This document shows positions 871-18,774 of a stretch of DNA of 20,000 bases, one piece after another (within the stretch, counting starts at the first letter, position 1; every line of letters begins with the position of its first letter). Origin of the DNA: an uncultured virus (IMG/VR IMGVR_UViG_3300038520_001826) (taxonomy: Duplodnaviria; Heunggongvirae; Uroviricota; Caudoviricetes). The notes beneath the pieces were generated by a model. It was not told where the DNA came from. It saw only the letters and a program-made list of their open reading frames with translations, and made no database searches. The translations under genes and the position numbers were made by a program. The stretch lies in IMG/VR virus record IMGVR_UViG_3300038520_001826; one strand, 5' to 3'.

Positions 871-2321
871 TCTTTTTCATCTCCTTTATATTTTACGAAT
901 ACTGAACGGCCAACCTTATCTTCTTCAAACTTATGAGAAATTGTTTTGTAATAGTTATAAATACTAGGTTGGCTCTTTTTTGTTTCTTTTTGAACTCTAT
1001 CAAGGTATAATTTCTTACTTACAAAGCCTTCTTCGTCTTTTTCCATTTCTAAGAATACCTTAATAAAAGATGGAATCATGCTCTTTTCCTCAAGAGTCTT
1101 GCGTCGAACTCGGAGGCTATCAGTTAGCCAATCCACCAATGACTTATAGCATTGTCGGACAATTGCTGACGCTTGACGGACATTATTGCCCGTTACAATG
1201 AATCGCTTGCTTTTATCCTTAATTGAAGGACTTTGTGCAATAGAACATAATACACTTAACTTCATCAATGTTTCCATTAATCTAGTAGTAAAGTTCCCTG
1301 CAATCTCTTTCACTTCTTTACGCTTGCTTTGAATAAACTCATGCATATTCTCGTATTCAAAAAGCAAAGCATCGTTAAACTCTTTAGAATACGTCATTGT
1401 ATCTAAAGGATTACGCCCTACTTCTTCATATCTTTCCTTTAGGGTCGAATAGATATTAAATATAGCATTGGCAAATCTTTCAATTGGTTGATTAACTTCA
1501 ACATATTTACCTGCCAATGCTATTTGCTCTCTTCTCATCGTGTCTTGAACCTTATCTTCTACCGCCCAAACAAACACTAACATTCTTTGAAGCACACCCT
1601 TTTCGGCCATTACATCCTCTAAGTTCTTTGGAGGATATGTCATTGCCATTACCGAGCGTTCACAGAAACATTCCATTATATCGCCTTCTTTGAGTTTTTT
1701 CGTAATAATCCATGATTCGCCTGCTAAGGTATTCATTAGTGTATTCAAATATACAATGGAACTTTCTTTGTGTTGTGTTGCCTTAAATACTCCAGAATAT
1801 TCAAACTCATCCCAATGAGCCAAACCACTTCCTTCTAAAGCCCCTGCAATTCTTTCCCAATCATCATTGCCATCTTCATCAAATACTTTCTTATAATAAC
1901 CAATAAGAGATGCATCTGTATAATCAACCAATGAAAAGGTATCAAAGATTTTTGGTATTGCAATATCGTTCCTTACTGCTCTAGGGTGTCCTTGATTTTC
2001 ATTTATCTTTCTAAAGACGGATTTAGCAATTGGCCCTACAAAGTTATAAAGAGTTGATTTACCAGTTCCAGATGTTTGAATCCAACAAAAATGGATTCTA
2101 CTATCTGATATATTTCTACCCTTTGGTATTTGCACAAAGTCTTTTGAAACTTGACCTAAAATAGTAAAGAAAGAAATAGCCGCAGGAACTTCATTATAGT
2201 GTGATACTTCTGTTGCTGATTTCTGAAACTCCCTTACAATTGCAGGTAATGATTCTGACATCGTTCTTCTATCTTCAAATACTTCTTCAAGCATTTCTTC
2301 GTTAATTTCTTCTTCATTCAT
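867..2321 (-). CDS. AAA+ ATPase, putative replicative helicase (MCM-related / DUF3987-like)
   Basis: Walker A QTSGTGKS, Walker B HWDE, arginine-finger GVLQRM, sensor-2-like FTTRLMETLMKLS, possible C-terminal winged helix. Lies near the primase. Confidence 0.7.
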   Translation of the reverse strand: MNEEEINEEMLEEVFEDRRTMSESLPAIVREFQKSATEVSHYNEVPAAISFFTILGQVSKDFVQIPKGRNISDSRIHFCWIQTSGTGKSTLYNFVGPIAKSVFRKINENQGHPRAVRNDIAIPKIFDTFSLVDYTDASLIGYYKKVFDEDGNDDWERIAGALEGSGLAHWDEFEYSGVFKATQHKESSIVYLNTLMNTLAGESWIITKKLKEGDIMECFCERSVMAMTYPPKNLEDVMAEKGVLQRMLVFVWAVEDKVQDTMRREQIALAGKYVEVNQPIERFANAIFNIYSTLKERYEEVGRNPLDTMTYSKEFNDALLFEYENMHEFIQSKRKEVKEIAGNFTTRLMETLMKLSVLCSIAQSPSIKDKSKRFIVTGNNVRQASAIVRQCYKSLVDWLTDSLRVRRKTLEEKSMIPSFIKVFLEMEKDEEGFVSKKLYLDRVQKETKKSQPSIYNYYKTISHKFEEDKVGRSVFVKYKGDEKE

Positions 2322-3013
2322 ATTTTCACCTTATCTTCTGAATTTAATACATTAAGTATTCTGTCTGCTAATGTTTTACCAAACCCTTCTAGTTTTTGAA
2401 TTTCAAAACTAGTTTGTTCTCCTATTTCCATAACAGACCCAAAACTATCTATTAACAGTTTTGCTTTTTTATAGGACACTCCTTTTATGCTTGTTAAAAT
2501 ATCTAACCTTAAATCGTCGGTGCTTATTCTTTTAAATATTTGTGGTCTTATATTTTCTCTTTTAATTGGTTGCATTTTACATACTGCTGTAATAATGTCT
2601 GATGCTTCTTCTTCGCTATGAACCCAAAATGGCTTTGCATCCATATCTAATGTTATTCTTCCTAATGCTCCTAAAAATTTATTTCTTAGCATAATTAATC
2701 TTGATTTTACTGGTAATGTGCTTTTTGAGTGTTCAATAATTTTCCAAATTCCTTCTTCTAAATCTCCATATATAATAACAACATTTGTTTGATAGTGTCT
2801 ATCCATATTATCCAATTGTGTCCATAGTCTTTTTGACATTACAGACCCAATAAAATCTTCAACGGACTTCGCTTCAAAACAAACATTATCATATACATAA
2901 TCTCCTATTTCTAACCATTTCTTTTCTGTCTTTATGTTTAATTTTCGTGCTTTATCTTCGACTAACTTTACTAATCTCGAACCTTCTTTTTCTCTACTAT
3001 CAATTATTAACAT
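2318..3013 (-). CDS. ERCC4/XPF-family (Hef-like) structure-specific nuclease with HhH motifs
   Basis: IIDSRE, LEIGDY and FEAKSVEDF (ERKxxxD variant). C-terminal HhH pair IKGVSYKKA and LEGFGKTLA. Confidence 0.9.
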   Translation of the reverse strand: MLIIDSREKEGSRLVKLVEDKARKLNIKTEKKWLEIGDYVYDNVCFEAKSVEDFIGSVMSKRLWTQLDNMDRHYQTNVVIIYGDLEEGIWKIIEHSKSTLPVKSRLIMLRNKFLGALGRITLDMDAKPFWVHSEEEASDIITAVCKMQPIKRENIRPQIFKRISTDDLRLDILTSIKGVSYKKAKLLIDSFGSVMEIGEQTSFEIQKLEGFGKTLADRILNVLNSEDKVKI

Positions 3014-4040
3014 CTGGAAACCTCCAACATTTACCTACACAATAGCCTTCCGATATTAACTTATTACAGAACGGTGTTTTGTAATTACCATTTACTGTAA
3101 ATCTTGCGTGTTTGCGTGTTTCGCTTTCATCCCAATCTAACCACACATCATCTCTTTCTCCAAAAGAAGTTTTGATTTCAGATACAATCATATCAAGGAC
3201 TTTGTTCTTTTCTTCTAACGAATTGAGATTCGTTCCGAGAGTCAATAAATCTCTATACCATGAAACGAGGTATGCTCTCGCCATATGCGAAGGATTCTCC
3301 GTCATTATAGCATTGTGCAAACATGGCAATAGTGGGAGTTTTCCATCATACTTCGGAACGGAAACTTCGCCTTCTACTTCATCTATGGGGGGTTGTTCGG
3401 GAAACTTGACCTTGATATTACCCACCTTTCTGAAAGGAATACTTCTTGGTTTGGATGCTAATACAATCAATTCATCAAGACTTAAAGAAAGGTCATCATA
3501 AAACAAAGGAATACAGAAAAGAGCATTTCCATTCTTATCAGAAGACGACATATTAACAGTATTTGGAACTCGCCTCAAACGAGTCTTTTGCCCTACTCTA
3601 TCATCTAAAGTATTTTCAATCCCAACCTTTTCAATAAGCATATTTTTTATCTCCTTAAAATATGCTTGAATGTTTCTGATATTGTCAGTTCTTTCACCAT
3701 CTAAAAACAAATGAAAACCTCTTCCAGAAAAAAATAAAGTATGGCTAATATTTTGTTCTATTACCCAATCCATTAATACTTTAATATCCCTATACGCATT
3801 TTTAAGGTCGCCATCATGTCCGTCAAAATCCAAAAATATCCTGTCTAGTATTACAGATGAATCAATCTGCGCAGTTTCACTAAAATGCTCAAAATCATAA
3901 ACAGTCGTATAAACATTCGTTCTGTTATTCTGAATTTTTACAAAATTAATGTAGTCATTCTTCGTCAGAACTATTTTTCTTTTCATCTGTGGTGCGTTCT
4001 TTATGTGGCTTCCCGCCCAAACTGCTCTCGGAAATTTCAT
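3000..4040 (-). CDS. Archaeo-eukaryotic primase, PriS catalytic domain fused to PriL-like Fe-S C-terminal domain
   Basis: AEP motifs FLDFD, FSGRGFH and RLRRVPNT. C-terminal Cys set LPCLH...PFCNKL...YCVGKC. Start MKFPR follows a GGAGGT SD. Confidence 0.85.
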   Translation of the reverse strand: MKFPRAVWAGSHIKNAPQMKRKIVLTKNDYINFVKIQNNRTNVYTTVYDFEHFSETAQIDSSVILDRIFLDFDGHDGDLKNAYRDIKVLMDWVIEQNISHTLFFSGRGFHLFLDGERTDNIRNIQAYFKEIKNMLIEKVGIENTLDDRVGQKTRLRRVPNTVNMSSSDKNGNALFCIPLFYDDLSLSLDELIVLASKPRSIPFRKVGNIKVKFPEQPPIDEVEGEVSVPKYDGKLPLLPCLHNAIMTENPSHMARAYLVSWYRDLLTLGTNLNSLEEKNKVLDMIVSEIKTSFGERDDVWLDWDESETRKHARFTVNGNYKTPFCNKLISEGYCVGKCWRFPDVNN

Positions 4041-4326
4041 TGTTACTACCTCCAAAATTTACTGTTGCTTTATCTAGCATATTTCTAATTGTTCCTGCTA
4101 CCTCTGCTCTTAAATGTGTCATGCATAATTCTTTCAATACATCTGGATAATAAGAACCAACCATTGTATCGTTGATTTTAGTTTCCTTGACCATTCCAAA
4201 TCTTTCAATTAGATTCATTTCTGAATATAATTCTGTTGCTAGTTGTTCAATGGAAGATGAAAGATTTGAAATCTCATTGAAAGTCCACGACTTTGCTTTT
4301 ACCTTTAACTCAATCACTTCTTTCAT
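3955..4326 (-). CDS. Hypothetical protein
   Basis: 123-aa ORF with GGAGG SD. Its 3' end overlaps the primase start. Confidence 0.65.
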   Translation of the reverse strand: MKEVIELKVKAKSWTFNEISNLSSSIEQLATELYSEMNLIERFGMVKETKINDTMVGSYYPDVLKELCMTHLRAEVAGTIRNMLDKATVNFGGSNNEISESSLGGKPHKERTTDEKKNSSDEE

Positions 4327-4478: not shown

Positions 4479-5384
4479 TCACACCCATGAATCATCTTGT
4501 GCGGCATCACAAATACCAAAATAAGAACAATGAGCGCAAGTCTTGTAAAAGAACTTAGCAGGGAATTGTTCTCTTTCATAGTGATGAATTAACTTAGCAA
4601 TATTATTCATTACAGAAGTCATAGACCTCTTCTTTCTTTCTTCTGCATAAATGTAGTTCGATGCTGGATAATACCAACCCCAATGTGTTACTTTATCATT
4701 AGGGTCAAGACCATTCTTAATCATAACTTCATCTGTTGCATTCTCAATAAGTAATTCATAAAATGCCATTTCTTTTCTCATTGAGGTTCTCTTGTAATCT
4801 TTCCAAGCACCTGTCTTATATTCAAAAGGAACAAGACCACCGTTTTCTTTAAAAATACGGTCAATGATTCCTTGAATATGGATTACATAATCTCTTTGCA
4901 AAGGAAACTTAGGATTGATGTTTGCAGGGATTGTAATTTCTGCATCAAACTTTCCTTCATTACAAACAGGTAAATATTCATGGACTTTACCTTCTGCCTT
5001 TGCTTCAATAAATCGTTGTGCTTCAAGAGAAGCAACAGTCAATGAAATATCATAGTATTCATCAACAGGCATTAATCCTGTGCAATATTCTAGGATTTCA
5101 CTATTGTTCATTTTTTCCGCCTTCTTAACATCAAAGTCATCAAAGAACTTCTCTCTATGATTGTGAAGAACCGTTCCTTTAAGCATCGCTTCGGTTTGGT
5201 CTTGAGGCAACCGTTGAACATAAGAAAAGTCGTATTTCTTTGGACACCAATCAAAAGTTCCCAAAGAAGACTTAGTTATTTTCAAGATAGGCATAGAGGG
5301 GTCATCATAATTTTCGTGATTCCATTGATAAGTGTATTCTCTCATCGAAGAAATCACCGCATTATATTTTTCGTCGTCGTTCAT
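4479..5384 (-). CDS. Cas4-like / RecB-family PD-(D/E)XK exonuclease with 4-Cys Fe-S staple
   Basis: SSLGTFDWCPKKY, GTVLH, GIIDRI, EYKTG and C-terminal CAHCSYFGIC. Confidence 0.88.
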   Translation of the reverse strand: MNDDEKYNAVISSMREYTYQWNHENYDDPSMPILKITKSSLGTFDWCPKKYDFSYVQRLPQDQTEAMLKGTVLHNHREKFFDDFDVKKAEKMNNSEILEYCTGLMPVDEYYDISLTVASLEAQRFIEAKAEGKVHEYLPVCNEGKFDAEITIPANINPKFPLQRDYVIHIQGIIDRIFKENGGLVPFEYKTGAWKDYKRTSMRKEMAFYELLIENATDEVMIKNGLDPNDKVTHWGWYYPASNYIYAEERKKRSMTSVMNNIAKLIHHYEREQFPAKFFYKTCAHCSYFGICDAAQDDSWV

Positions 5385-5551: not shown

Positions 5552-6439
5552 TTACCACCATTCGTCTAATTTCATTTGTATTTTTCCTGTTCTTATTGAA
5601 GATACATCCCAATTCATCGCTCGATAAATTGGTTCAGCCTTTTTGATTATTTGTTCTGCATAATGTTTGTAGTCAGGCGTGTACCTTTCACATTCATCAT
5701 ATGTTGTTGCAGATACATATTCTACTTCTCTTTGTTCCTTCGTCAAAGGATGTGTATATGTACTATATACGTCTTTAACCTTAAGATATAAATAAGAATC
5801 ATCAAAGGTCATATCTAATTTTTCCCAAGCGTAAAGAATACCTGCAATACCTGAACCAATTGCAGGTCTTTTGTAAGTAGATGTTACAAACCTTTCTGTT
5901 TCTGTTCCGCATTTATCACACCATTTAATTTTAATACATTCTTTTAAGTGGTGTTTCTTCTTACATTCAGGACACTTAAGAATAATTCTATCTTCTCTTA
6001 GACGGCTACGTTTTACAATGTCAGAAGTATTTACTTTACCTTCCATAACTTCATTGTATTTATCAGAAAGATACTTGTTTATTTCTCCCATTGTCTTTTG
6101 TTCGACCCACATCTTCAATACTGTTGTTTGAACATCCTTAGCGAGTTTTGTTTCACTAACACGCTTTGCAGTAAAACCTGTCATTGTAAATTTAGGCTCA
6201 TCGAGCCAAACTCCATCTTCCCAAGATACTAAACCTGCGTTTCGATTCTTTGTTGTTCCAACACCTAATGCAGAATAATACTTTTCAAATTCAAGAACAA
6301 CTGGATGCTGTTCAAGATTCAATACATTAGGAAAGTGTTCACGAACTGAATCTTCAATCTCCTTGATTGCTGATTCAGCCTTTTCAATAGATTCAATCTG
6401 AACATAGATTGAATCTGTATGTCCATAAACTACTTTCAT
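5552..6439 (-). CDS. polB: Family B DNA polymerase, C-terminal subunit (motif C palm + thumb)
   Basis: MKVVYGHTDSIYV, LEFEK, KNRNAG, TGFTAKR and YAEQIIKKAEPI. C-terminal PIP box QMKLDEWW. GGTGAT SD at 6443-6448. Confidence 0.9.
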   Translation of the reverse strand: MKVVYGHTDSIYVQIESIEKAESAIKEIEDSVREHFPNVLNLEQHPVVLEFEKYYSALGVGTTKNRNAGLVSWEDGVWLDEPKFTMTGFTAKRVSETKLAKDVQTTVLKMWVEQKTMGEINKYLSDKYNEVMEGKVNTSDIVKRSRLREDRIILKCPECKKKHHLKECIKIKWCDKCGTETERFVTSTYKRPAIGSGIAGILYAWEKLDMTFDDSYLYLKVKDVYSTYTHPLTKEQREVEYVSATTYDECERYTPDYKHYAEQIIKKAEPIYRAMNWDVSSIRTGKIQMKLDEWW

Positions 6440-6442
6440 AGT

Positions 6443-6448
6443 ATCACC
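6443..6448 (-). promoter_or_regulatory. Shine-Dalgarno GGTGAT for the polB C-terminal subunit
   Basis: GGTGATACTATGAA is identical to the start context at 18481-18494 and complementary to the 16S 3' end (AUCACC). Confidence 0.7.
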
Positions 6449-6638
6449 AAGCGTTTTCAAAATAGATTTTATTATCAGTGTATTGCATCAATTCCTGCTT
6501 AATAGTTTTAATATCCTTAACTAAGTCTGCGAATGTTACATTCTCTTCGTAAAGTTGGCCTATTTCATTTTCAAGCCTCTTTACTGTTTGCTTCAAATTT
6601 GCTATTTCTGCTTTTAATTCTTTAATTTCTTTACTCAT
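6444..6638 (-). CDS. Small coiled-coil protein
   Basis: Heptad pattern IKELKAEIANLKQTVKRLENEIGQL. GGTGAT SD. Confidence 0.7.
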   Translation of the reverse strand: MSKEIKELKAEIANLKQTVKRLENEIGQLYEENVTFADLVKDIKTIKQELMQYTDNKIYFENAW

Positions 6639-6766
6639 AATATCACCGTTACGATTGTTATAATGGTTATAATGTTCACGATATTTACCATCATCAATAT
6701 CTTATTGCTTTTTGCTATCATAGCAAGAAGTTCTTTAAGAAGTTCATTAGTTTTGTCCATCATCAT
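6635..6766 (-). CDS. Small putative membrane protein (43 aa, not in ORF track)
   Basis: MMMDKTNELLKELLAMIAKSNKILMMVNIVNIITIITIVTVIL, with a C-terminal hydrophobic helix. ATGA overlap with the next gene. Confidence 0.6.
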   Translation of the reverse strand: MMMDKTNELLKELLAMIAKSNKILMMVNIVNIITIITIVTVIL

Positions 6767-6908
6767 AAACTTCACTTACCGTTACTATAATAGCGTTCCT
6801 TTTGAGATTGTTCATCATTTGAAATAATTCCTTTACTTCTTGTAAAGTAATATCCCATGTTTCTTCTGTATCATAAGATACTTCAACTGTTACAATTTTC
6901 TTCTTCAT
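6747..6908 (-). CDS. Small hypothetical protein (53 aa, not in ORF track)
   Basis: MKKKIVTVEVSYDTEETWDITLQEVKELFQMMNNLKRNAIIVTVSEVYDDGQN, with a GGAGGT SD upstream. Confidence 0.65.
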   Translation of the reverse strand: MKKKIVTVEVSYDTEETWDITLQEVKELFQMMNNLKRNAIIVTVSEVYDDGQN

Positions 6909-7143
6909 AAATATACCTCCATTTATCTTTTATTACCCAATGTTTAGTCCTTGATTTATTTCCAACAGGGTCAGCATATGGCTTTAGAAGTCGTGCTATT
7001 CTCGCCACTTTATAATACTTACCATGTTCTCTTTTGTAAAAATCAAGTATTTCATCTATTTGAAACTCATCAGGGTTTTCTACTTGTTGTAGAGATTGAA
7101 TTAACTTTTTCTTAATTCTAAGATTTCCTGCACTTCTACCCAT
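6883..7143 (-). CDS. Small basic protein, possible winged helix-turn-helix
   Basis: Pattern of helix / FQIDEILDFY / KVARIARLL / wing ending HWVIK. ATG immediately follows the polB-N stop. Confidence 0.55.
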   Translation of the reverse strand: MGRSAGNLRIKKKLIQSLQQVENPDEFQIDEILDFYKREHGKYYKVARIARLLKPYADPVGNKSRTKHWVIKDKWRYIYEEENCNS

Positions 7144-8799
7144 TTATTCCATCTCCTTTGCTTTAAATGCGGCTAAACGAATTGCTTCTCTTGCACTTGC
7201 AGTAATACTAGCGGCTAAATCTACATCAGCCCAACCAAATCCTTGAAAGGCTACAATGCCATAAAATGATGCCATTAATCTTTTTACTGCCATTTGGTTG
7301 TTATACCACTTGACATATTCATTTTTATCATCATTCTCTCTTGCTTCTTTCATAAGACCCTTGTATTTGTTTCTTAAATCTTTCAATTCAAGAACTGCGC
7401 TAGGTAAAAGACCTAGATTATCTGTCTTATAATACAACATTTGTTCTCTATCAGTAATACTGAAATCTCTAGGTGTTAAAATATTTACTCCAAATTCTGT
7501 TGGTTCTTCTGATTTAGTTTCCCATGAAATATTTCTTGCAATCATCATTGAAGGATATAGTCCTGCAAAATCAAAAGCAGCAACATTAAGATGCAATCCA
7601 TTTGTTTCTTCACTTAACGGGTCATAAATCATAGCACCATCGTATTCTTGACGTTTCTCTACCTTTTCACCTGTTGGTGCAATCCATGTAGCATGACGCA
7701 TAAAATAGATTGAACCCATATGACTTGCGTAAAAGCAAGCACTAAATGGCGCAATTAGAAGTCTTTGTAATGCTACGATTGCTTCACTACAATAATTCAA
7801 TTCATCAATTTCAACCATCAATTCAACATCTATCTGAGCATACTTAAGATATGTTTCAGTATCATTTAACCAACCTTCTCGATAGAATACATTCGGGTCT
7901 GGGAACTTTTCACTAACAAGTTTCTTTCTTCCCAATACTGATTCAGAAATGTAATCTAAAGACATTGACGGTAATGTTCCCCTTTGAGAGTCATTCCATT
8001 GTCTTTCAAAAGCAAGGTCTAAATTGAGGGTTATGCGACCCCCAATGGGCTGTTCGATAGGGCCGAACCCATTGTTACCATATTTGAAAATAAAGCCGTT
8101 CGTAGTCTTCTTAACGCCCTTAATCTCCAAAACTGGAGACATGATTGTGGGGTTTAATTCCAAAGCACACGCTCGCTCAAGGAGTTTTGGCAAATCGAAT
8201 TTTAGACCAAACCATGCAATTAACATATCAGGGTCTTTATCGACCATTGTGTGCATAAAGTTTTCAATCATATCCTTTTCACTATCAAACGTAAATGTAG
8301 ATGTAGTGTCATAAACTAAATCACGTTGCAATTCTTTTGGAAACCAAACCCATTGGAAGTATTTCTCATCATAATTATCATAAACCACAATAGTAGTAAT
8401 TTTATCATGGTGTTCACCGCCCTGTTGCCATTCCATATCCCAATACCATTTACGCATCTTATATTCAGGTAAAGAACCTAAAGTATCAACTGCATATCTA
8501 AAAGCATATGGAACATCTGCTTCAAAGGTTTTTACAAAAGAACGTCGAGCAATATGAATATCATCAGACTTATCCACATAAACTCTAGTCAATTTTTCAC
8601 CTTGAAGATTGTGCCAATTGCCCTCTTCATAAGTAAATTCTCTCTTAATGAATTTAGAAGGCGCATAATACTTAGGTTGATTATCAGAAGATAGGATATA
8701 GAAATAAGGAGTAAATTCAACAATTTTTTGTCTTTTCTCTCTACCCTCTCTCCATGATGTATAGATGTGCTTTCCTGTATCTGTTTTACTTATTATCAT
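7144..8799 (-). CDS. polB: Family B DNA polymerase, N-terminal subunit (N-term, exonuclease, motif A, fingers/motif B)
   Basis: FEADVP, ExoI DME, ExoII WFGLKFD, ExoIII YAQID, motif A DFAGLYPS, motif B QMAVKRLMASFYG, then AASITASAR. Confidence 0.92.
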   Translation of the reverse strand: MIISKTDTGKHIYTSWREGREKRQKIVEFTPYFYILSSDNQPKYYAPSKFIKREFTYEEGNWHNLQGEKLTRVYVDKSDDIHIARRSFVKTFEADVPYAFRYAVDTLGSLPEYKMRKWYWDMEWQQGGEHHDKITTIVVYDNYDEKYFQWVWFPKELQRDLVYDTTSTFTFDSEKDMIENFMHTMVDKDPDMLIAWFGLKFDLPKLLERACALELNPTIMSPVLEIKGVKKTTNGFIFKYGNNGFGPIEQPIGGRITLNLDLAFERQWNDSQRGTLPSMSLDYISESVLGRKKLVSEKFPDPNVFYREGWLNDTETYLKYAQIDVELMVEIDELNYCSEAIVALQRLLIAPFSACFYASHMGSIYFMRHATWIAPTGEKVEKRQEYDGAMIYDPLSEETNGLHLNVAAFDFAGLYPSMMIARNISWETKSEEPTEFGVNILTPRDFSITDREQMLYYKTDNLGLLPSAVLELKDLRNKYKGLMKEARENDDKNEYVKWYNNQMAVKRLMASFYGIVAFQGFGWADVDLAASITASAREAIRLAAFKAKEME

Positions 8800-8800
8800 T

Positions 8801-9568
8801 TTAATTACCTGCCGAAAACGGTGCTTTAATTATCATCCTGTCTTCTGCAACTAACAATAGCGGAAACTCATCCTTCACATAAAAATTAATATTCGTATTT
8901 TTCTTGAAAAACTTATGTAATGGGCCACTATATTCTAATGTTGCAGATTCACCAAAACAATTTGTTGGTGTAATTCTTTCTTCGTATTGATTCTGAATAG
9001 TAGCACCGCTTGAAAATGTAACGGTAGTACCATTGTAGTCTAGTTTAAATGCGCCATGATTTGCCAATTCACAAGATGAAATACAATCAGAATAAACATC
9101 TTGACTTAAGATAAAAGCACCTTCATACTTTGATTTACCAAAATCTGGTAAAGTTGTAATTTCTTCTTCATAGGTAATGTTAGATAACATACCTTGAAGT
9201 CGAGTAATTGCAGTCATATTAGGATGTTGAATTACTTTTGCTACACTAGCCTTCTTTGTTCCAGAACTAACTTGAATTGTATCATCTACAACAAAAGCAG
9301 TTAGTTCTCCGTATTTCTTAAGATACGGGACAAGAGTCTTAACATTACCAATAAACTCGCCATCTTCTGCACCTATCACTTCTAAATTGATATTCATAGC
9401 AAAGGTAGTATCTCCATTCCAAATGGATAGAGTATTACCTCTTAACTGCATTAAGAAATGTAGTCCCATCGAGTTATTTGTAAAACCCGATGAAGTTAGG
9501 TATTTACCTTTACCTTGAATACTTTCTAATGCTTCTGTAATTTGTTTTGTATTTACTGCAAATTTCAA
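8801..9568 (-). CDS. pcn: PCNA-like DNA sliding clamp
   Basis: 255 aa, with the clamp-like alternating helix/strand pattern and C-terminal FPLLL...MIIKAP. Directly upstream of polB, in a cluster with RFC. Confidence 0.7.
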   Translation of the reverse strand: MKFAVNTKQITEALESIQGKGKYLTSSGFTNNSMGLHFLMQLRGNTLSIWNGDTTFAMNINLEVIGAEDGEFIGNVKTLVPYLKKYGELTAFVVDDTIQVSSGTKKASVAKVIQHPNMTAITRLQGMLSNITYEEEITTLPDFGKSKYEGAFILSQDVYSDCISSCELANHGAFKLDYNGTTVTFSSGATIQNQYEERITPTNCFGESATLEYSGPLHKFFKKNTNINFYVKDEFPLLLVAEDRMIIKAPFSAGN

Positions 9569-10374
9569 ATCTTACCCTCCTGCAAATCAGGAATGCCGTT
9601 CCAAACGATATTAGGTGGAATACCTTCTCGAATAGTCCAACGTGTTCCGACCTTGTTACCATTGGTTCTTGAACCAATCAATTCAGCAACAAAGTGTATT
9701 TCACCTTTTACTTTTCTCTTAGAACAATGAATCTCTTGTTCTAGTTTTCCGCCCCAATCCTTCCATGCAGGTTGAATACCCGTAGCAACATTATCTACAT
9801 ACTTTTCAGTTTCGTGAGTAATATAAATTACATCACACTTTAGATTAAAAATTGCTTCAAGCAAATAATAGAAAGTTTTGTTTCTTGGGCCATATTGATA
9901 TGGCATCATTTTTGTTACAACAGTAGGATTTGGATTAACCTTGTAAATACATTTTTCAAACCATGTATCTACTCCATCCATCACAAAGATAGGCTTTTCA
10001 CCTTCTTCAATCTTCTGTCGAACATAACGAATAAAATCATGAGAGTTTTTCTCAGATGCATTAATATCAATTTTGTTCTCATTATCTTGAACAATTGGGT
10101 CAAACACTTCAATACGTTCTGTTGCGTCATGGCATTCAATCCATGTAGATTCAACACCACTATCCCAATCTAAAACGTAAATCTTACGTTCAGGGAAATC
10201 GAGAGCAATACCAGTTTTACCTGTTTTTGGTTCTCCCCAAATTCCTAAGACCATTCGACTTTTACGTTCTTGCCTTTTCTTTTCCATCAATTGTCTAAAG
10301 CGAGAATTGAAATCTTCTTGCTGTTTTCCAAAGTTGGTCGTCTTTTGTTCTCCTTTCTTATCTGTTATTCCCAT
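9565..10374 (-). CDS. RecA-superfamily ATPase (AAA_24 / Sak4 / RadA-like recombination protein)
   Basis: Walker A GEPKTGKT, VLDWDSG, Walker B FVMDGVD and YITHE. GGTGAT SD before MGITDK. Confidence 0.8.
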   Translation of the reverse strand: MGITDKKGEQKTTNFGKQQEDFNSRFRQLMEKKRQERKSRMVLGIWGEPKTGKTGIALDFPERKIYVLDWDSGVESTWIECHDATERIEVFDPIVQDNENKIDINASEKNSHDFIRYVRQKIEEGEKPIFVMDGVDTWFEKCIYKVNPNPTVVTKMMPYQYGPRNKTFYYLLEAIFNLKCDVIYITHETEKYVDNVATGIQPAWKDWGGKLEQEIHCSKRKVKGEIHFVAELIGSRTNGNKVGTRWTIREGIPPNIVWNGIPDLQEGKI

Positions 10375-10627
10375 AACTATCACCTAATTCATTTATATCT
10401 ATATCTAATTCTTTACCATGCATTTTAGTCCATGCCATTAAGATAGTTGCTAATTCTAATTTATCGCAAATATATCTTGCTTCTTTGGTTGAAAAGTGCA
10501 TCTTCAACCAATAAGTTCCATTCTCTTTTTCGTTCTTTCTCCATGTTAAGAAATCTACATTGGCTAAATCGACAATGTAGGCATCTCCTTTCAAAAGAAA
10601 CCTTTCTTCTTTTAAGTCCGTCGTCAT
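10358..10627 (-). CDS. Hypothetical protein
   Basis: 89-aa ORF with GGAGA SD, co-oriented with the operon. Confidence 0.65.
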   Translation of the reverse strand: MTTDLKEERFLLKGDAYIVDLANVDFLTWRKNEKENGTYWLKMHFSTKEARYICDKLELATILMAWTKMHGKELDIDINELGDSYGNNR

Positions 10628-12048: not shown

Positions 12049-12960
12049 TCAGATTAACTGACCTACAAGCCATGAAATCAATACTCTTGGTGTCATGGTT
12101 GTGGAACGGTATTCGCTTTCTCCTATTGTTCTTAAAAACTTAAATTTAACATTTGAGTCTATTCCTTCTGATTGAATAATACTATCATGCATACCCATAC
12201 AAATCTCACGAACAGACCTACCCATGTAAATCATATCGTGAAGGGTTGCTAAGACATTTGTATCTTTATTCATTATCAAATTAATTATTTTAACATATTC
12301 TTCTAAATTCATCTCACTTTGTTTTTTGAGTGTGATATTTGACGATTTTGCCGCTTGAATCTCGGTAATCGCTCTACGAATATCACCATTCATTGAATAT
12401 ATAAAGGGTAACAAGTCCTCATCCGAAAAACGATTAATGTTTTCGTTGGCTAAGATTCCCTTGATTACTTCTAAAATGACCTCATTAGAAAGAGGTTTGA
12501 AATGATAGTTTGCACATCGGCTTTGAAGAGGAAAGATAATTCTGTTTCTATCATTACAAGTAATGATAAACCGAATATTAGAAGCATATCGCTCCATGAT
12601 TCTCTTCAATGCATTCTGAGCATCGTTTGTCATTCCATCCATCTCATCTAATAAACAAATTCTAAATGGCACATCACCAATAGTTCCGCTTTGTGCAATT
12701 TGTTTAATTAGTGTTCTGACTGTTTCTAGTTTCCTATCATCTGATGCATTAACTTCAAAGAAGTTATCAGATGTATTATTACCCAATATTGTCTTTGCTA
12801 ATGCTAAAGCAGCACCAGTCTTACCTGTTCCTGCTCTACCATAAAATAACAAATTAGGTATATTTTTTTCTTCAATCCACGTTTCTGCATCCATAACAAA
12901 GTGTTCTTGTCCTACAATATCACTTAGTTTAGATGGTCTGTATTTTTCTGTCCATAACAT
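12049..12960 (-). CDS. rfcS: Replication factor C small subunit
   Basis: LWTEKYRP, GRAGTGKT, EVNASD, LDEMD, QSRC and GDIRRAI. Confidence 0.95.
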   Translation of the reverse strand: MLWTEKYRPSKLSDIVGQEHFVMDAETWIEEKNIPNLLFYGRAGTGKTGAALALAKTILGNNTSDNFFEVNASDDRKLETVRTLIKQIAQSGTIGDVPFRICLLDEMDGMTNDAQNALKRIMERYASNIRFIITCNDRNRIIFPLQSRCANYHFKPLSNEVILEVIKGILANENINRFSDEDLLPFIYSMNGDIRRAITEIQAAKSSNITLKKQSEMNLEEYVKIINLIMNKDTNVLATLHDMIYMGRSVREICMGMHDSIIQSEGIDSNVKFKFLRTIGESEYRSTTMTPRVLISWLVGQLI

Positions 12961-13506: not shown

Positions 13507-14373
13507 TTATTCACCATTGAAATAATCATTTAAATTCTTTATCTCCAATTTAATAGGAGCGTTTCTTTTCTTTCTAGGTTTTTCTAAGCCTAGCATCCTA
13601 CAATCGGTATTATTCAACCGCTTCATAGTATGTTTCTTAAACTCATCATCTTTCAATAATTGTTTAAGTATTCGTGTATCGGAATTTTTAATTCCTAGTT
13701 TTCTAGCCAAATAAGGAATCTTAGAATAGGTTCCTCTTTTTGGCATATTAATTCTGCCAAAGGTTTTACCTTGATGGGCATAGGCCAACATCTCATAAAA
13801 GTATCTTTGACTCCATCTTCTCTTAACTACACCATCAACAAAGATTAATTTATTGGGATGCATATTTTCTGCAAGCCATGTTAATATCTGCGTATCTGAT
13901 GGTTTGTTGTAGATAAGTAATTTACAAACTAAATCTCTATCAGTCTGTTTAAGATATTCCATTACCAAAGAGTATGTATCTCTCTCAAAAGTAAATGGTT
14001 CTTCGCTTCTAGGAGCAAGTTCTTTAATTGACTCAGATAAGTATTTCTTAGAACCTGCCCTTTTAATTTGACAAAGAGACTTGATTTCTTTAGGAACACT
14101 TTTTTCATTAATAGAAGTCAATACTACTTGACCTTTGTAGTTTCTAATGACATATAGAATGTCATCTTTTCTAGGCTTATAGTGAACGTCTTCAATAATG
14201 ATACCACTATCAATATCAATAGCAAAAATATCTTTGACTTCTATTTCATTCGCATAGAATATCAAAGGTTCCTTTACAAAGGTCAAAGCCTTTGTTGATT
14301 TTCCTGTTCCTGTTTTTCCTGTTATTAATATTGGTCTATTATTATTCATATTAGTTAATCCCATTAACTTCAC
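13507..14373 (-). CDS. Divergent, short RFC large-subunit-like AAA+ protein
   Basis: PILITGKTGTGKST, YANE, Walker B-like IIIEDVH, WLAEN and C-terminal PIP-like KNLNDYF. Near rfcS. Confidence 0.65.
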   Translation of the reverse strand: MKLMGLTNMNNNRPILITGKTGTGKSTKALTFVKEPLIFYANEIEVKDIFAIDIDSGIIIEDVHYKPRKDDILYVIRNYKGQVVLTSINEKSVPKEIKSLCQIKRAGSKKYLSESIKELAPRSEEPFTFERDTYSLVMEYLKQTDRDLVCKLLIYNKPSDTQILTWLAENMHPNKLIFVDGVVKRRWSQRYFYEMLAYAHQGKTFGRINMPKRGTYSKIPYLARKLGIKNSDTRILKQLLKDDEFKKHTMKRLNNTDCRMLGLEKPRKKRNAPIKLEIKNLNDYFNGE

Positions 14374-14921
14374 CCTTTATTAACGTGTGGACCTGTAACA
14401 TATTTAAATGCTGCTTTTCTGCAAAAATCACAGCAATATTTTGTTTCTTGCTTTTTATGCTGTTTGTATTCAGCACCACAAAAATCACAAGTAGTAGTCT
14501 TTAAATCTAATATAAACTGCTTCCTCGCTGCTTCGTTAAAGGCAAGAATTTGTGCTTCAGTTAAAATTCCTTGTTTTGTTCTTTTTATCGCCATACTTCT
14601 CGACCTTTGGCATTTACGGGAGCAGTATTTTTTATTGTATGTTGTTTTTTCGTAATCCTTACCACAGGCAAAACAAATCGCTTTTTCCATTTTCCTCTCC
14701 AGTCTTTTGATTCTTCGCCTTTCTTTTCTAACCTCTTCTTGTTTTGCCCTATTACAAGATTCAGAACAAAACTTGTGATTGCTTCTTTTACTACTAAATG
14801 TAGTAGAACAATATTCACATTTCTTTTCAGGAAACCAAATTTTCATTAAGCCGTTTAAAATCTCAGGTTTATCCTTAAATATTTCTTTCATCTGTTCTCT
14901 AGTTAAATAATTTTTACTCAT
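14370..14921 (-). CDS. Protein with three CxxC...(F/Y)CxxxC zinc-finger repeats
   Basis: CEYC..FCSESC, CFAC..YCSRKC and CDFC..YCCDFC. Confidence 0.75.
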   Translation of the reverse strand: MSKNYLTREQMKEIFKDKPEILNGLMKIWFPEKKCEYCSTTFSSKRSNHKFCSESCNRAKQEEVRKERRRIKRLERKMEKAICFACGKDYEKTTYNKKYCSRKCQRSRSMAIKRTKQGILTEAQILAFNEAARKQFILDLKTTTCDFCGAEYKQHKKQETKYCCDFCRKAAFKYVTGPHVNKG

Positions 14922-16143: not shown

Positions 16144-16507
16144 TTTGAACACCTTGCTTCAATACAGACTTAATTACTTCTAAATCGGCTTCCTGTTCTA
16201 TTACCTTTAGAGCAAGATTGAAAACTTCCATAAGTCGTTTGTTTTCTTTTTGAAGAGTTTGGTCAGACTTTATTTTTACCTTTAGATACTTCATCATCTT
16301 TTTACCTAAATCGGGTTTAGTTGCATTAGGAGTATGTTCTAATCTAAGAATCAAAAGATGGTCATGAAGACTATTCAATCTTTCCTTAATATGTTTCAAT
16401 TTATGATATTCAGTTTTGATAAAAGAACCTACTTGGGTTTCTGTCATTGCTGAAATCTTAAAACATCTACCGTTGCTATCACTAATATATTTGTTACTGT
16501 ATGTCAT
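16136..16507 (-). CDS. Hypothetical protein
   Basis: 123-aa ORF with an ATGA overlap with the ligase stop. Confidence 0.65.
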   Translation of the reverse strand: MTYSNKYISDSNGRCFKISAMTETQVGSFIKTEYHKLKHIKERLNSLHDHLLILRLEHTPNATKPDLGKKMMKYLKVKIKSDQTLQKENKRLMEVFNLALKVIEQEADLEVIKSVLKQGVQND

Positions 16508-18024
16508 GCTAATTCCTCCATTCTTTTCATTGTGTCTATATCGCTTACAAACTTATCCTCTCTAATTCTTTGGCATCTAGGGAATCTGAGAGAAAGATTA
16601 CCCTTTGCGTCTTTGCTGACTAAATCAGCCCTAATTTCTAAAACTACTCTAGGTAAGAAATGATATGTTCCATCCTTAAATGATTCAACATTCTTTCTTA
16701 GAGTATTTGTTAATGTAATTAATTGAACATCTGTGAAACCACTTCCACACCATCCAACAGAAGTAAAACCATTATCTGATTTTACTGCAATTTCAAATGT
16801 AGCAAATACATTTGAGTTCTTTCCATCACCATACTTTGCTGAAATAATAACTACATCTAAATCAATTAGAGGCGGCTTATACTTAGCCCAGTATTTTGAC
16901 CTTTTACCAGACTCATAAGGTGCATCTGCATCTTTTACAATAATACCTTCAAACCCTTCATTAATTGCTTTATTATAGAAAGCCATTACATCAGTTGTTG
17001 AACGCTCGGCTTGGTCTGGTAATTTATTCATTTCAATCAATCTTTGAGAATAAGGCAAATTCATTATTGTTACGCCATCATACATTAGACAATCGAAGAT
17101 GACCCACTTTACAGGACACTTAGAGATTGCATCTGCTTTATCCTTAGAATGCACTCTTGTTCCTAATTTGGAATGTGGTGCGGGTGAACCGCCCTCAAGT
17201 ATAGGATAGATTTCACCATCCAAAATAAGTTCATCAACCTCATAGTTTCTAACCACTTCTGCTACATCAGTAAATTGTTCTGTAACAATTTTGCCTTTTC
17301 TATTAAAGATAATAACGCTATTCTTATTCTTATGAATTTGATAACGATTACCGTCATACTTGAAATCAACAATCTTGTTGTTAGGCCATTGTTTCATAGG
17401 CAGGGGTTTAGCCAACATAGGTTTGATAAAACTACCATGAGTTAAATTCATTGGTGGTTCTTCATTCATCTCATAATATGAAATAACATCACTAAGAGTA
17501 TTGAAGTTACAATGCTTCTTTACCTCTGATATTTTCTTCCCATAATGCTTTGCTAGAACTTTTTGAAGAGTTGAAGTTTGAATACCATTACGACTAGTTC
17601 TTAGCCAGTAGCGGATAAACCATTTTACTTCAATATCAGACATATTGTATATGTGTTCTTGAATTAAGTCAAACGAATTAGATACAATATTAGAACAATC
17701 AAGTTCTAAAAGAGTCTTGAAGGTTTTGATTGTATAAGTATTTTCTTTGTTTGAAGAATCTACCCAATACATTGCTTCTCCTAAATCTCCATAGGTATCA
17801 TATTCTGTTTGAATTTCAGATTCAAATACATCATAAACCTTAGCCATCCACTTCTTAGCCTTAGCCAAACCAATATTGTTTGATACTAAGTCTTGAGAAA
17901 GAATACTAAACAATGTTTGCTTGTCTTCAAAATTCTCCATTTCCCTTGAAAGGAATGTTACCGCTTGAGTTGGAGTCATAAACTCGCTCGCTTCCAGTAG
18001 TCTTGCTAATTGTTTCATTGTCAT
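16504..18024 (-). CDS. lig: ATP-dependent DNA ligase
   Basis: IKPMLA, motif I KYDGNR, LDGE, FDCL, EGIIVK, KYKP and LRFPR. N-terminal DNA-binding domain (YGDLGE). Confidence 0.96.
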   Translation of the reverse strand: MTMKQLARLLEASEFMTPTQAVTFLSREMENFEDKQTLFSILSQDLVSNNIGLAKAKKWMAKVYDVFESEIQTEYDTYGDLGEAMYWVDSSNKENTYTIKTFKTLLELDCSNIVSNSFDLIQEHIYNMSDIEVKWFIRYWLRTSRNGIQTSTLQKVLAKHYGKKISEVKKHCNFNTLSDVISYYEMNEEPPMNLTHGSFIKPMLAKPLPMKQWPNNKIVDFKYDGNRYQIHKNKNSVIIFNRKGKIVTEQFTDVAEVVRNYEVDELILDGEIYPILEGGSPAPHSKLGTRVHSKDKADAISKCPVKWVIFDCLMYDGVTIMNLPYSQRLIEMNKLPDQAERSTTDVMAFYNKAINEGFEGIIVKDADAPYESGKRSKYWAKYKPPLIDLDVVIISAKYGDGKNSNVFATFEIAVKSDNGFTSVGWCGSGFTDVQLITLTNTLRKNVESFKDGTYHFLPRVVLEIRADLVSKDAKGNLSLRFPRCQRIREDKFVSDIDTMKRMEELA

Positions 18025-18154: not shown

Positions 18155-18485
18155 TAGAATCAATCTCCTGTAATAGTCTTAGGAAATTAGTCATCATCAT
18201 AGAGACAACTTCTGCTTCATGTTGCTTATCTTTTTCAAGGAGTCTATGCATTACATGAATTAGAGTTGCTTGCGTTATTGCAGGTGCTAATTTTGCTAAT
18301 GAACCATTTAGTTGTATTTCCCAATAACAAATAAATGATGCTCTTGCAAAATAGTTTGCATATCGTATCTCTTGGGCATTCATATTAAAACTGTCAAGAA
18401 ATACTCCATCTAGTTTCTTTCGCTTTTCTTTGCACCATGATGCAAACTTTTTATCATTGTTTGCAATTAAGTATAGTTTATTCAT
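18141..18485 (-). CDS. Hypothetical protein
   Basis: Start MNKLY preceded by the GGTGATACT SD (18486-18494). Confidence 0.65.
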   Translation of the reverse strand: MNKLYLIANNDKKFASWCKEKRKKLDGVFLDSFNMNAQEIRYANYFARASFICYWEIQLNGSLAKLAPAITQATLIHVMHRLLEKDKQHEAEVVSMMMTNFLRLLQEIDSNEEE

Positions 18486-18489
18486 AGTA

Positions 18490-18774
18490 TCACCTATTAT
18501 ATGGCCATCCTTCCAAACCACGACAAAGTTGCATAATCATTCTTCGATATTCTAGACTATTTTCTGGATATTCCTTTTGCATTTCTAAAATCATTTTTAC
18601 TGCCTTTTCGATTTCTTCAGGGACATTATTACCGCTATCGAACCATTCTCTAATCTTATTAAATCTTTCTTGATAGTATTCACTAAAGAATTGTTTTTTA
18701 TGCTTTTCCCATTTTTCTAAAACTTCTGGAAAATGTGCTTTTAGCCATTTTAGTAATTCTCTCTCTGTATTCAT
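18490..18774 (-). CDS. Hypothetical protein
   Basis: 94-aa ORF with an ATGA overlap with the upstream gene. Confidence 0.65.
   Translation of the reverse strand: MNTERELLKWLKAHFPEVLEKWEKHKKQFFSEYYQERFNKIREWFDSGNNVPEEIEKAVKMILEMQKEYPENSLEYRRMIMQLCRGLEGWPYNR

Follow-up and report, generated by a model that had tools for sequence, protein, structure and literature searches.

The stretch of DNA considered here, 20,000 nucleotides from an uncultured virus of the Caudoviricetes (IMG/VR record IMGVR_UViG_3300038520_001826; hereafter the window), encodes a family-B DNA polymerase (PolB) and raises the question of how a replicative enzyme of this family can carry altered residues at the very place where it meets the primer terminus. 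The second Lys of the KKRY motif is treated as essential in family-B polymerases, and a whole clade of abundant marine viruses lacks it, always together with a His at the first Asp of motif C. Sequence comparison indicates that a deep clade of uncultured viral PolBs is marked by this His-Asn pair and is probably the 'Magro' group; the pair is a real clade signature and probably a compensated one. The polymerase of the window is encoded in two pieces, with the following features.

7144..8799, minus strand: PolB N-half, 551 residues, with the N-terminal and 3'-5' exonuclease domains, palm motif A and fingers motif B (open reading frame (ORF), Pfam, PHROG and PDB)
7549..7572, minus strand: motif A, DFAGLYPS, with metal-binding D410 and steric-gate Y415 (translation and HMMER)
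7258..7284, minus strand: motif B, KRLMASFYG, with K506 kept and Ala for the canonical Asn (translation and HMMER)
5552..6439, minus strand: PolB C-half, 295 residues from ATG 6439, with motif C, the KKRY-type motif, the thumb with a four-Cys insert and a tail like a PCNA-interacting (PIP) box (Pfam and relatives' starts)
6410..6427, minus strand: motif C, YGHTDS, with His for the first Asp and catalytic D9 kept (translation and HMMER)
6233..6250, minus strand: KKRY-type motif, KNRNAG, with the second Lys and the Tyr both replaced by Asn (translation and HMMER)
5900..5974, minus strand: four-Cys zinc-ribbon-like thumb insert (C156, C159 and C177 invariant, C174 at least 90% conserved; weak Zn_ribbon_8 match)
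5555..5578, minus strand: C-terminal Q-x-x-L-x-x-W-W tail, PIP-box-like (Q288 and W294 invariant, tail kept in 25 sequences)

Assignment of both pieces to the family is supported by Pfam matches of the N-half to DNA_pol_B (2.2e-19) and DNA_pol_B_exo1 (7.6e-9), by its match to PHROG 262 at 2.6e-65, and by PF00136 scores of 70 bits for the N-half and 36.4 bits for the C-half against a cut-off of 23, with 35.8 bits for PF03104; a PDB search matched solved PolBs down to 3.6e-18. Translation of the minus strand reads the four motifs at 7572-7549, 7284-7258, 6427-6410 and 6250-6233, exactly where the earlier note on this DNA had placed them, and the interval 6233-7572 that it treated as one gene is in fact two genes, the first closed by a stop codon at 7144-7146 and the second restarting at ATG 6439. 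HMMER aligned DFAGLYPS with DFRALYPS and KRLMASFYG with KLLANSFYG of Pfu, and VVYGHTDS with VVYGDTDS and TKNRNAGL with NKKRYAGL of yeast Pol delta. In IMG/VR 530 related stretches were found, and the analysis was made on the best 80, whose N-halves are 58-95% identical; the C-half region is reached by 60 rows, representing 59 loci and the window. The first Asp of motif C is replaced by His in 60/60 of these rows, the window among them, and the canonical KKRY is replaced by KNRNAG in 57/60 and by ANRNAG in 2/60, the one other row being incomplete. Of 52 distinct DNA versions of the split lineage, 38 encode the His by CAT and 14 by CAC, and the two Asn codons are AAT/AAC in proportions of 25/26 and 23/28. 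The His and both Asn residues are held while their codons drift, which is read as selection.

The remainder of the active site was followed in 25-sequence alignments, in which D410, Y415, K506 and D9 of the C-half are invariant, so that the essential metal-binding Asps and the motif-B Lys are retained, as the earlier note had held. Within motif B no variation is seen at K506, S511, Y513 or G514, A510 has a conservation of at least 90%, and the basic residues R476 and K480 upstream of the motif are conserved. Motif A reads DFAGLYPS in 76/81 rows and DFASLYPS in more distant split relatives. The exonuclease residues D121 and E123 (Exo I), D202 (Exo II), and Y320 and D324 (Exo III) are invariant both in the 25 sequences and in a wider alignment of 19 sequences. 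The C-half tail, whose final position varies between W and F among relatives, resembles in its motif pattern a PIP box. The four-Cys thumb insert varies in length among relatives. Pfam scans of two related genomes, a 95% identical relative that is 83% complete (G002) and a complete genome (G003), found PolB as the sole polymerase family. Because the catalytic Asps, the motif-B Lys, the steric gate and the exonuclease residues are invariant, and because the PIP-like tail is accompanied by neighbouring genes for a putative clamp and a clamp loader, we take the split PolB to be the virus's replicase, active and proofreading.

The positions that are replaced have well-described roles in model enzymes. 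The second KKRY Lys (RB69 K706, Pol delta K814, Pol epsilon K967, phi29 K498) is hydrogen-bonded to the n-2 primer base in the minor groove, which agrees with the reading of the minor groove ascribed to it beforehand; its replacement by Ala (K706A, K967A) almost abolishes synthesis, and K967A is lethal in yeast, the mutant enzyme degrading the primer instead (PMC4333401). Residue Y708 bonds the primer 3' end and K705 and R707 touch the backbone, a water molecule links N564 to the beta-phosphate, and K560 is the proton donor (PMC3564110). Residues D411, D621 and D623 are called a catalytic triad (PMC3792054).

The association of motif-C His with the loss of the KKRY Lys was examined across the family in a full HMMER search of 1.84 billion cluster representatives, which returned 3570 matches, the best 150 of which were used as outgroups. 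At least 600 residues are present in 111 of these best 150 matches, and motif C could be located in 110, for which the local realignment was inspected row by row with the following outcome.

Motif C Asp with the second KKRY Lys: 78 rows
Motif C Asp with the KKRY region unaligned: 3 rows
Motif C His with Asn: 17 rows
Motif C His with Ala: 1 row (P0187)
Motif C His with an ambiguous residue (VNRR or NRRA, not Lys): 1 row (P0175)
Motif C interrupted by an intein: 10 rows, 9 with Lys and 1 with Ala (P0190)

Among the 110 representatives the second KKRY Lys is missing in 19/19 His rows and kept in 78/78 Asp rows with an aligned KKRY region, and neither His with Lys nor Asp with a residue other than Lys was seen among the 97 rows with a residue at both positions. 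The seven cultured relatives, comprising five haloviruses, a cyanophage and Caulobacter phage Cr30, all combine Asp with Lys. Three rows that appeared to pair Asp with Asn (P0207, P0209 and P0259) turned out on inspection and realignment to be Asp with Lys. The possibility that rows of 1100-1200 residues reading 'NTDS' are Asn variants of motif C was rejected for 8/10 of them, which display an intein junction (...YG[D/H], then S...HN, then TDS), P0167 and P0226 being left unassigned. In the same 8/10 rows the end of the N-extein could be located, and it reads YGD in seven and YGH in P0190, the row with Ala. Either change, from Asp to His (GAY>CAY) or from Lys to Asn (AAR>AAY), requires a single nucleotide step, and the lack of intermediates in the 97 rows despite such short steps suggests that His with Lys and Asp with Asn are not tolerated.

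The extent to which this pattern reflects common descent was considered in trees built from the N-half region alone, with the trait columns excluded. Sixteen His rows fall in one clade, with an SH-aLRT (Shimodaira-Hasegawa-like approximate likelihood-ratio test) support of 99 under LG+G4 with 109 rows and of 97 under the C20 mixture with 72 rows. P0175 is attached weakly at the base of this clade, the placement of P0161 was left unresolved, and P0187 lies among the Asp rows with a support of 94. Conversely, P0181, which carries Asp and Lys, is nested within the His clade with a support of 98. It represents a lineage of 7 clusters, 56-100% identical to P0181 and found on contigs of up to 90 kb, in which all four motifs are canonical in 7/7, a pattern compatible with a joint reversal as well as with misplacement of a long branch or outgroup. 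On the 72-row tree each trait undergoes three changes, these changes are on identical branches and all are concordant. From the sequences it may safely be stated that the His-Asn pair had at least one deep origin in the tree, that it has been held across a divergence of roughly 30% identity and that its members differ together.

The further substitutions of the window behave differently from the pair. Replacement of the KKRY Tyr by Asn is found in the window and in 4/19 His representatives of the 110-representative set and in no Asp row; in the 72-row set it occurs in 5/19 His rows vs 0/53 Asp rows, and the position needs 5 changes on the tree when other residues are counted too. Ala at the motif-B Asn occurs in 12/19 His rows vs 0/53 Asp rows of the 72-row set, with 7 changes, and P0247 is the one Asp row with motif-B Ala in the wider set. 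Both substitutions appear to be recurrent secondary changes, apparently permitted only in the His-Asn background. The motif-A change from Ser to Gly is ordinary variation among these sequences, Gly being present in 8/72 Asp rows, Ala in Pfu and Ser in the split relatives L111 and L112. Thus the proposal that the KKRY Tyr and the motif-A and motif-B positions belong to one coordinated set does not stand, and the covariation claimed for the motif-C Asp, the KKRY Lys and the KKRY Tyr narrows to the replacement of Asp by His with that of Lys by Asn. A second, unsplit virus group (L097-L109), with contigs of about 100 kb and a PolB of the P0148 type, displays AGHTDS and KNRN with the motif-B Asn retained. 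Since this group combines KNRN with the motif-B Asn, its Tyr-to-Asn change arose separately from that of the window's lineage.

The break in the gene falls between motifs B and C. The N-half ends in ...AAFKAKEME, and the C-half begins MKVVYGHTDS at ATG 6439, which is most likely the true start because all 24 of the 24 sampled relatives begin M[KEDR]VVYGHTDS there. A separate C-half is found 404-2799 bp downstream of the N-half in 60/60 rows that extend far enough, the N-half protein homologues among the matches listed are all about 540-560 residues long, and the break point is identical in all sampled relatives, more distant members (52-57% identical) being split at the identical residue. The nearest unsplit relative, P0124 (780 residues, 49% identical), reads ...KEMGYEICYGHTDS... 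across the junction, where its chain runs continuously through ...KEMGYEICYGH.... P0124 already carries HTDS and MNRN, so the His-Asn pair is older than the gene split. The window halves align end to end with P0124, and the break therefore cost no residues and left no intein stubs; an origin of the break as an intein remnant was rejected on this ground. An Rfam scan of the window found no RNA family, hence no sign of an intron in the gap. The IMG/VR search from P0124 yielded only four more-distant split relatives, and no PolB of the P0150 type was found in the IMG/VR search. The split itself is not new, a split polymerase having already been published for seven magroviruses of group B, where its position is given as 'similar, but not identical' to that of other split or intein-bearing PolBs (PMC5434244).

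The PolB representatives of 1100-1200 residues that carry an intein (P0158, P0190, P0208, P0233, P0241, P0249, P0261 and P0271) have it within motif C, where it separates the Thr from the first Asp (or His). This insertion site lies six residues further downstream than the break point of the magroviruses.

The halves are separated by about 684 bp, where four small ORFs lie head to tail at 6444-7143 and are packed with overlapping stops and starts.

6883..7143, minus strand: 86-residue ORF beginning right after the N-half stop (homologues in 17/54 distinct gap loci)
6747..6908, minus strand: 53-residue ORF (kept in 52/54 distinct gaps)
6635..6775, minus strand: 46-residue ORF with a hydrophobic, tail-anchor-like C-terminal tail (kept in 53/54 distinct gaps)
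6444..6638, minus strand: 64-residue, coiled-coil-like ORF (kept in 51/54 distinct gaps)

Neither these four ORFs nor seven larger gap ORFs of relatives match a Pfam or PHROG family, the 64-residue ORF giving weak coiled-coil family matches only. In L110 and L111, two of the more distant split relatives, the homologue of the 46-residue ORF is located downstream of the C-half. The gap of some relatives holds an HNH endonuclease gene (just below the Pfam cut-off) or a MUG113/T5orf172 gene (L009:7657-8280; L017/L018:7666-8265), which fits a site visited by mobile endonuclease genes.

Whether the two halves could form one enzyme was considered in structural models. The model of the two-half complex has an interface score (ipSAE) of 0.78, the best control having 0.00; this mark is attained by 116/157 solved complexes and 2/215 mismatched pairs, and the pass may merely mirror likeness to solved unsplit PolBs and is no proof of binding. 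Contacts are at least 98% concordant over three runs, and the predicted local distance difference test score (pLDDT) of the partner is at least 85. In this model the motif-A strand (N-half residues 399-414) contacts C-half residues 1-18 and 45-66, a packing that would rebuild the palm sheet. When folded alone the C-half has a confident thumb and a poorly defined palm, and its AlphaFold2 model is structurally closest to archaeal PolBs, in their C-terminal portions (Foldseek E 1.5e-4 to 3a2f).

Taken together, we consider it likely that the window derives from a group-B-type magrovirus, an uncultured marine archaeal virus, and holds its replication block, and that the replicative PolB consists of two polypeptides held together non-covalently and contains a linked, compensated His-Asn pair. 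The two polypeptides would assemble without a covalent join, the N-half providing the exonuclease, motif A and motif B, and the C-half providing motif C, the KKRY-type motif, the thumb and a clamp-binding tail. A charged Asp-Lys couple would ordinarily keep the Lys at position n-2 of the primer, within the minor groove and next to the metal-A site. D621 and K706 of RB69 are reported by Xia and colleagues (2012) to fix each other's rotamers. A neutral couple, His-Asn, with much the same combined size may have taken the place of the charged one and do the same job, with net charge unchanged, one side chain larger and the other smaller, and one member of the couple still donating a hydrogen bond to the minor groove. 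The enzyme would thereby stay a proofreading replicase, and the losses of the KKRY Tyr and the motif-B Asn would be later, repeated changes tolerated solely in the altered background.

A functional shift was considered as the first alternative, in which the His-Asn pair would alter metal preference (with Mn or some other transition metal bound by the His close to site A), the balance of synthesis and proofreading, or fidelity, with the losses of the Tyr and the motif-B Asn as its sequel. The location of the replaced residues in the primer-terminus and metal-A region, that of the catalytic triad, speaks for such a shift, as does the restriction of the Tyr-to-Asn change and of motif-B Ala to His rows in the 72-row set; strict conservation of the pair is, however, equally expected from plain like-for-like compensation, and we regard the shift as rather unlikely. 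By the title of a 2004 report by Zakharova, selected RB69 mutants are reportedly rescued by Mn. Doubtful to a like degree is a rewired primer-terminus checkpoint, in which the His rather than the KKRY Lys would read the n-2 minor groove and/or bind a transition metal beside site A. Metal use and the balance of synthesis and proofreading would then have changed, and the KKRY Tyr and the motif-B Asn would have become dispensable and been lost repeatedly.

Adaptation to a modified genome, which the earlier note had proposed, would mean that the polymerase, through remodelled minor-groove and nucleotide contacts, can use a non-canonical base or copy one. Several residues in contact with the primer or the incoming nucleotide have indeed changed together, and about 85% of the ORFs of related genomes are without a Pfam match, which leaves room for unrecognised modification enzymes. 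Yet no gene of the thymidylate-synthase family is present in 5 related records, 4 of which are at least 90% complete, and the His-Asn pair spans a very deep clade, of about 30% identity, with different virus groups. A Pfam search of the 106 ORFs of G002 and the 133 ORFs of G003 found no thymidylate-synthase-like, PurZ-like, queuosine/DpdA, deaminase or methyltransferase family at E<=1e-5, an absence of evidence only, as most of these ORFs have no Pfam match. The search for base-modification genes thus lends the idea no support, and we hold it to be very improbable. Hardly any credence is given to a decayed or non-catalytic polymerase, with the virus replicated by the host enzyme. Such decay might be argued from the interruption of the gene and from the near abolition of activity by replacement of the KKRY Lys with Ala in model enzymes (PMC4333401), but there is no variation in either metal Asp, in the motif-B Lys, in the steric-gate Tyr or in any exonuclease residue. 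Moreover the N-halves keep open frames over 80 loci at 58-95% identity, with codons turning over and amino acids kept, the start codon and the PIP-like tail of the C-half are conserved, and genes for clamp loader, primase and ligase complete the replisome block in which the gene lies.

Several observations weigh against the compensated two-polypeptide enzyme that we prefer. If well-supported branches alone are counted there are just 2 independent co-transitions of the two traits, the best tree has 3, and a sign test is not significant. In approximately unbiased (AU) tests, which were run in IQ-TREE under LG+F+G4 with fast searches and therefore under a model weaker than the mixture, a single clade of all His rows was not rejected (p 0.073). 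The position of P0181 outside the main His clade gave p 0.048, so that the apparent joint reversal depends on a marginal value and a long branch; the position of P0187 inside the main His clade gave p 0.22. In the model of the lone C-half, pLDDT is below 50 at residues 2-12 and 52-94. The covariation of the two positions is borne out by the counts and, with 2-3 events, weakly proven by the tree, and coupling beyond shared ancestry is only partly demonstrable from these sequences.

The surroundings of the polymerase conform to the proposed magrovirus origin. The window has 33% G+C and genes almost all on the minus strand, and PHROG and Pfam scans recognised in it a viral replication block.

16504-18024: ATP-dependent ligase (PHROG/Pfam)
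14370-14921: HNH endonuclease (PHROG/Pfam)
12049-12960, minus strand: clamp loader of the replication factor C (RFC) type (PHROG 168 at 2.7e-58; the G002 orthologue matches AAA, DNA_pol3_delta2 and Rep_fac_C)
9565-10383: AAA_24 / Sak4-like ATPase (PHROG/Pfam)
8801..9568, minus strand: putative sliding clamp of 255 residues, adjoining polB (assigned from position alone)
7144-8799 and 5552-6460: the two family-B DNA polymerase pieces (PHROG/Pfam)
4479-5384: PD-(D/E)XK (Cas4-like) nuclease (PHROG/Pfam)
3000-4055: primase-like gene (PHROG/Pfam)
2318-3013: ERCC4 nuclease (PHROG/Pfam)
50-664: DnaQ-like exonuclease (PHROG/Pfam)

The 255-residue gene has no family match in Pfam or PHROG; a sliding clamp is reported for every magrovirus replication block (Philosof et al. 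2017, PMC5434244). An archaeal-type block with clamp loader, archaeo-eukaryotic primase, ligase and nucleases, as recognised here by PHROG and Pfam, is a magrovirus trait, and the relatives' genomes display three more, namely a head-tail module, a genome of about 65-100 kb and a marine origin. Their contigs are about 94-95 kb and rated complete, some N-half protein homologues are of Tara origin, and Pfam scans of related genomes gave matches to capsid, protease, tail-tube and terminase families as well as to ribonucleotide reductase, a chaperonin and a TFIIB-like gene, the last being present in G003. Both G002 and G003 hold a pyrimidine-dimer glycosylase and a UvrD-type helicase, and both have a ThiF-family (E1-like) gene amid unannotated genes (L090:2643-3203 in G002, L095:14841-15401 in G003). 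The segment 14379-14918 containing the HNH endonuclease (ORF 14370-14921) is absent from the 95% identical G002, where the flanks are joined directly; the gene is thus a presence/absence polymorphism, as expected for a homing endonuclease. Window positions 18483-18767 are also missing in G002.

The interest of the locus resides in the pair rather than in the split, which was already known and adds little. The His-Asn clade is a natural double mutant that could shed light on the coupling between the minor-groove checkpoint and the metal-A site, and the region around KKRY and motif C is one that polymerase engineers have also altered.

Among known systems the closest is the split PolB of group B (B1) magroviruses, which like the window have a marine replication block with RFC, primase, ligase and nucleases and a PolB cut in the catalytic domain, and whose published description fits the genomes of about 94 kb, the ribonucleotide reductase and the chaperonin of the window's relatives; that account is not known to cover the substitutions in the motifs, what the gap contains or the exact break point (PMC5434244). 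The 'Magro' PolB group has been described within a PolII-like clade, separate from the halovirus/B5 and T4-like polymerases (Kazlauskas et al. 2020, PMC7544198), and the present trees likewise place haloviruses and T4-like phages outside the His clade. The text of the same work remarks on a motif-C His for groups B2 and G2 only, although its figure logos may show the Magro His uncommented (PMC7544198). The new point is thus the His-Asn pairing, the split and the Magro group being already published, and a full-text literature search for a motif C of the HTDS type in DNA polymerases found no paper. The two-subunit PolB of Methanothermobacter thermautotrophicus is also split in the catalytic domain without an intein and translated as two separate subunits; it is cellular rather than viral, and the magrovirus split, compared by description only, is at a similar but not identical position (PMC5434244). 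The piPolB, B2/G2 and PolB_SITDG enzymes indicate that some active PolBs can do without the first Asp of motif C, and B2 and G2 conserve a motif-C His. In contrast to the window PolB, they belong to different clades, the exonuclease motifs of B2/G2 are degenerate, and no pairing with the KKRY Lys is known to be described for them (PMC7544198). In no solved PolB chain among the alignments examined is the first Asp of motif C a His. RB69 gp43, Pol delta and Pol epsilon have the same fold, their motifs align position for position with those of the window PolB, and they share with it the catalytic Asps and the motif-B Lys. In contrast, the window PolB has His at their first motif-C Asp, Asn at both their minor-groove Lys and their primer-terminus Tyr, and Ala at their motif-B Asn.

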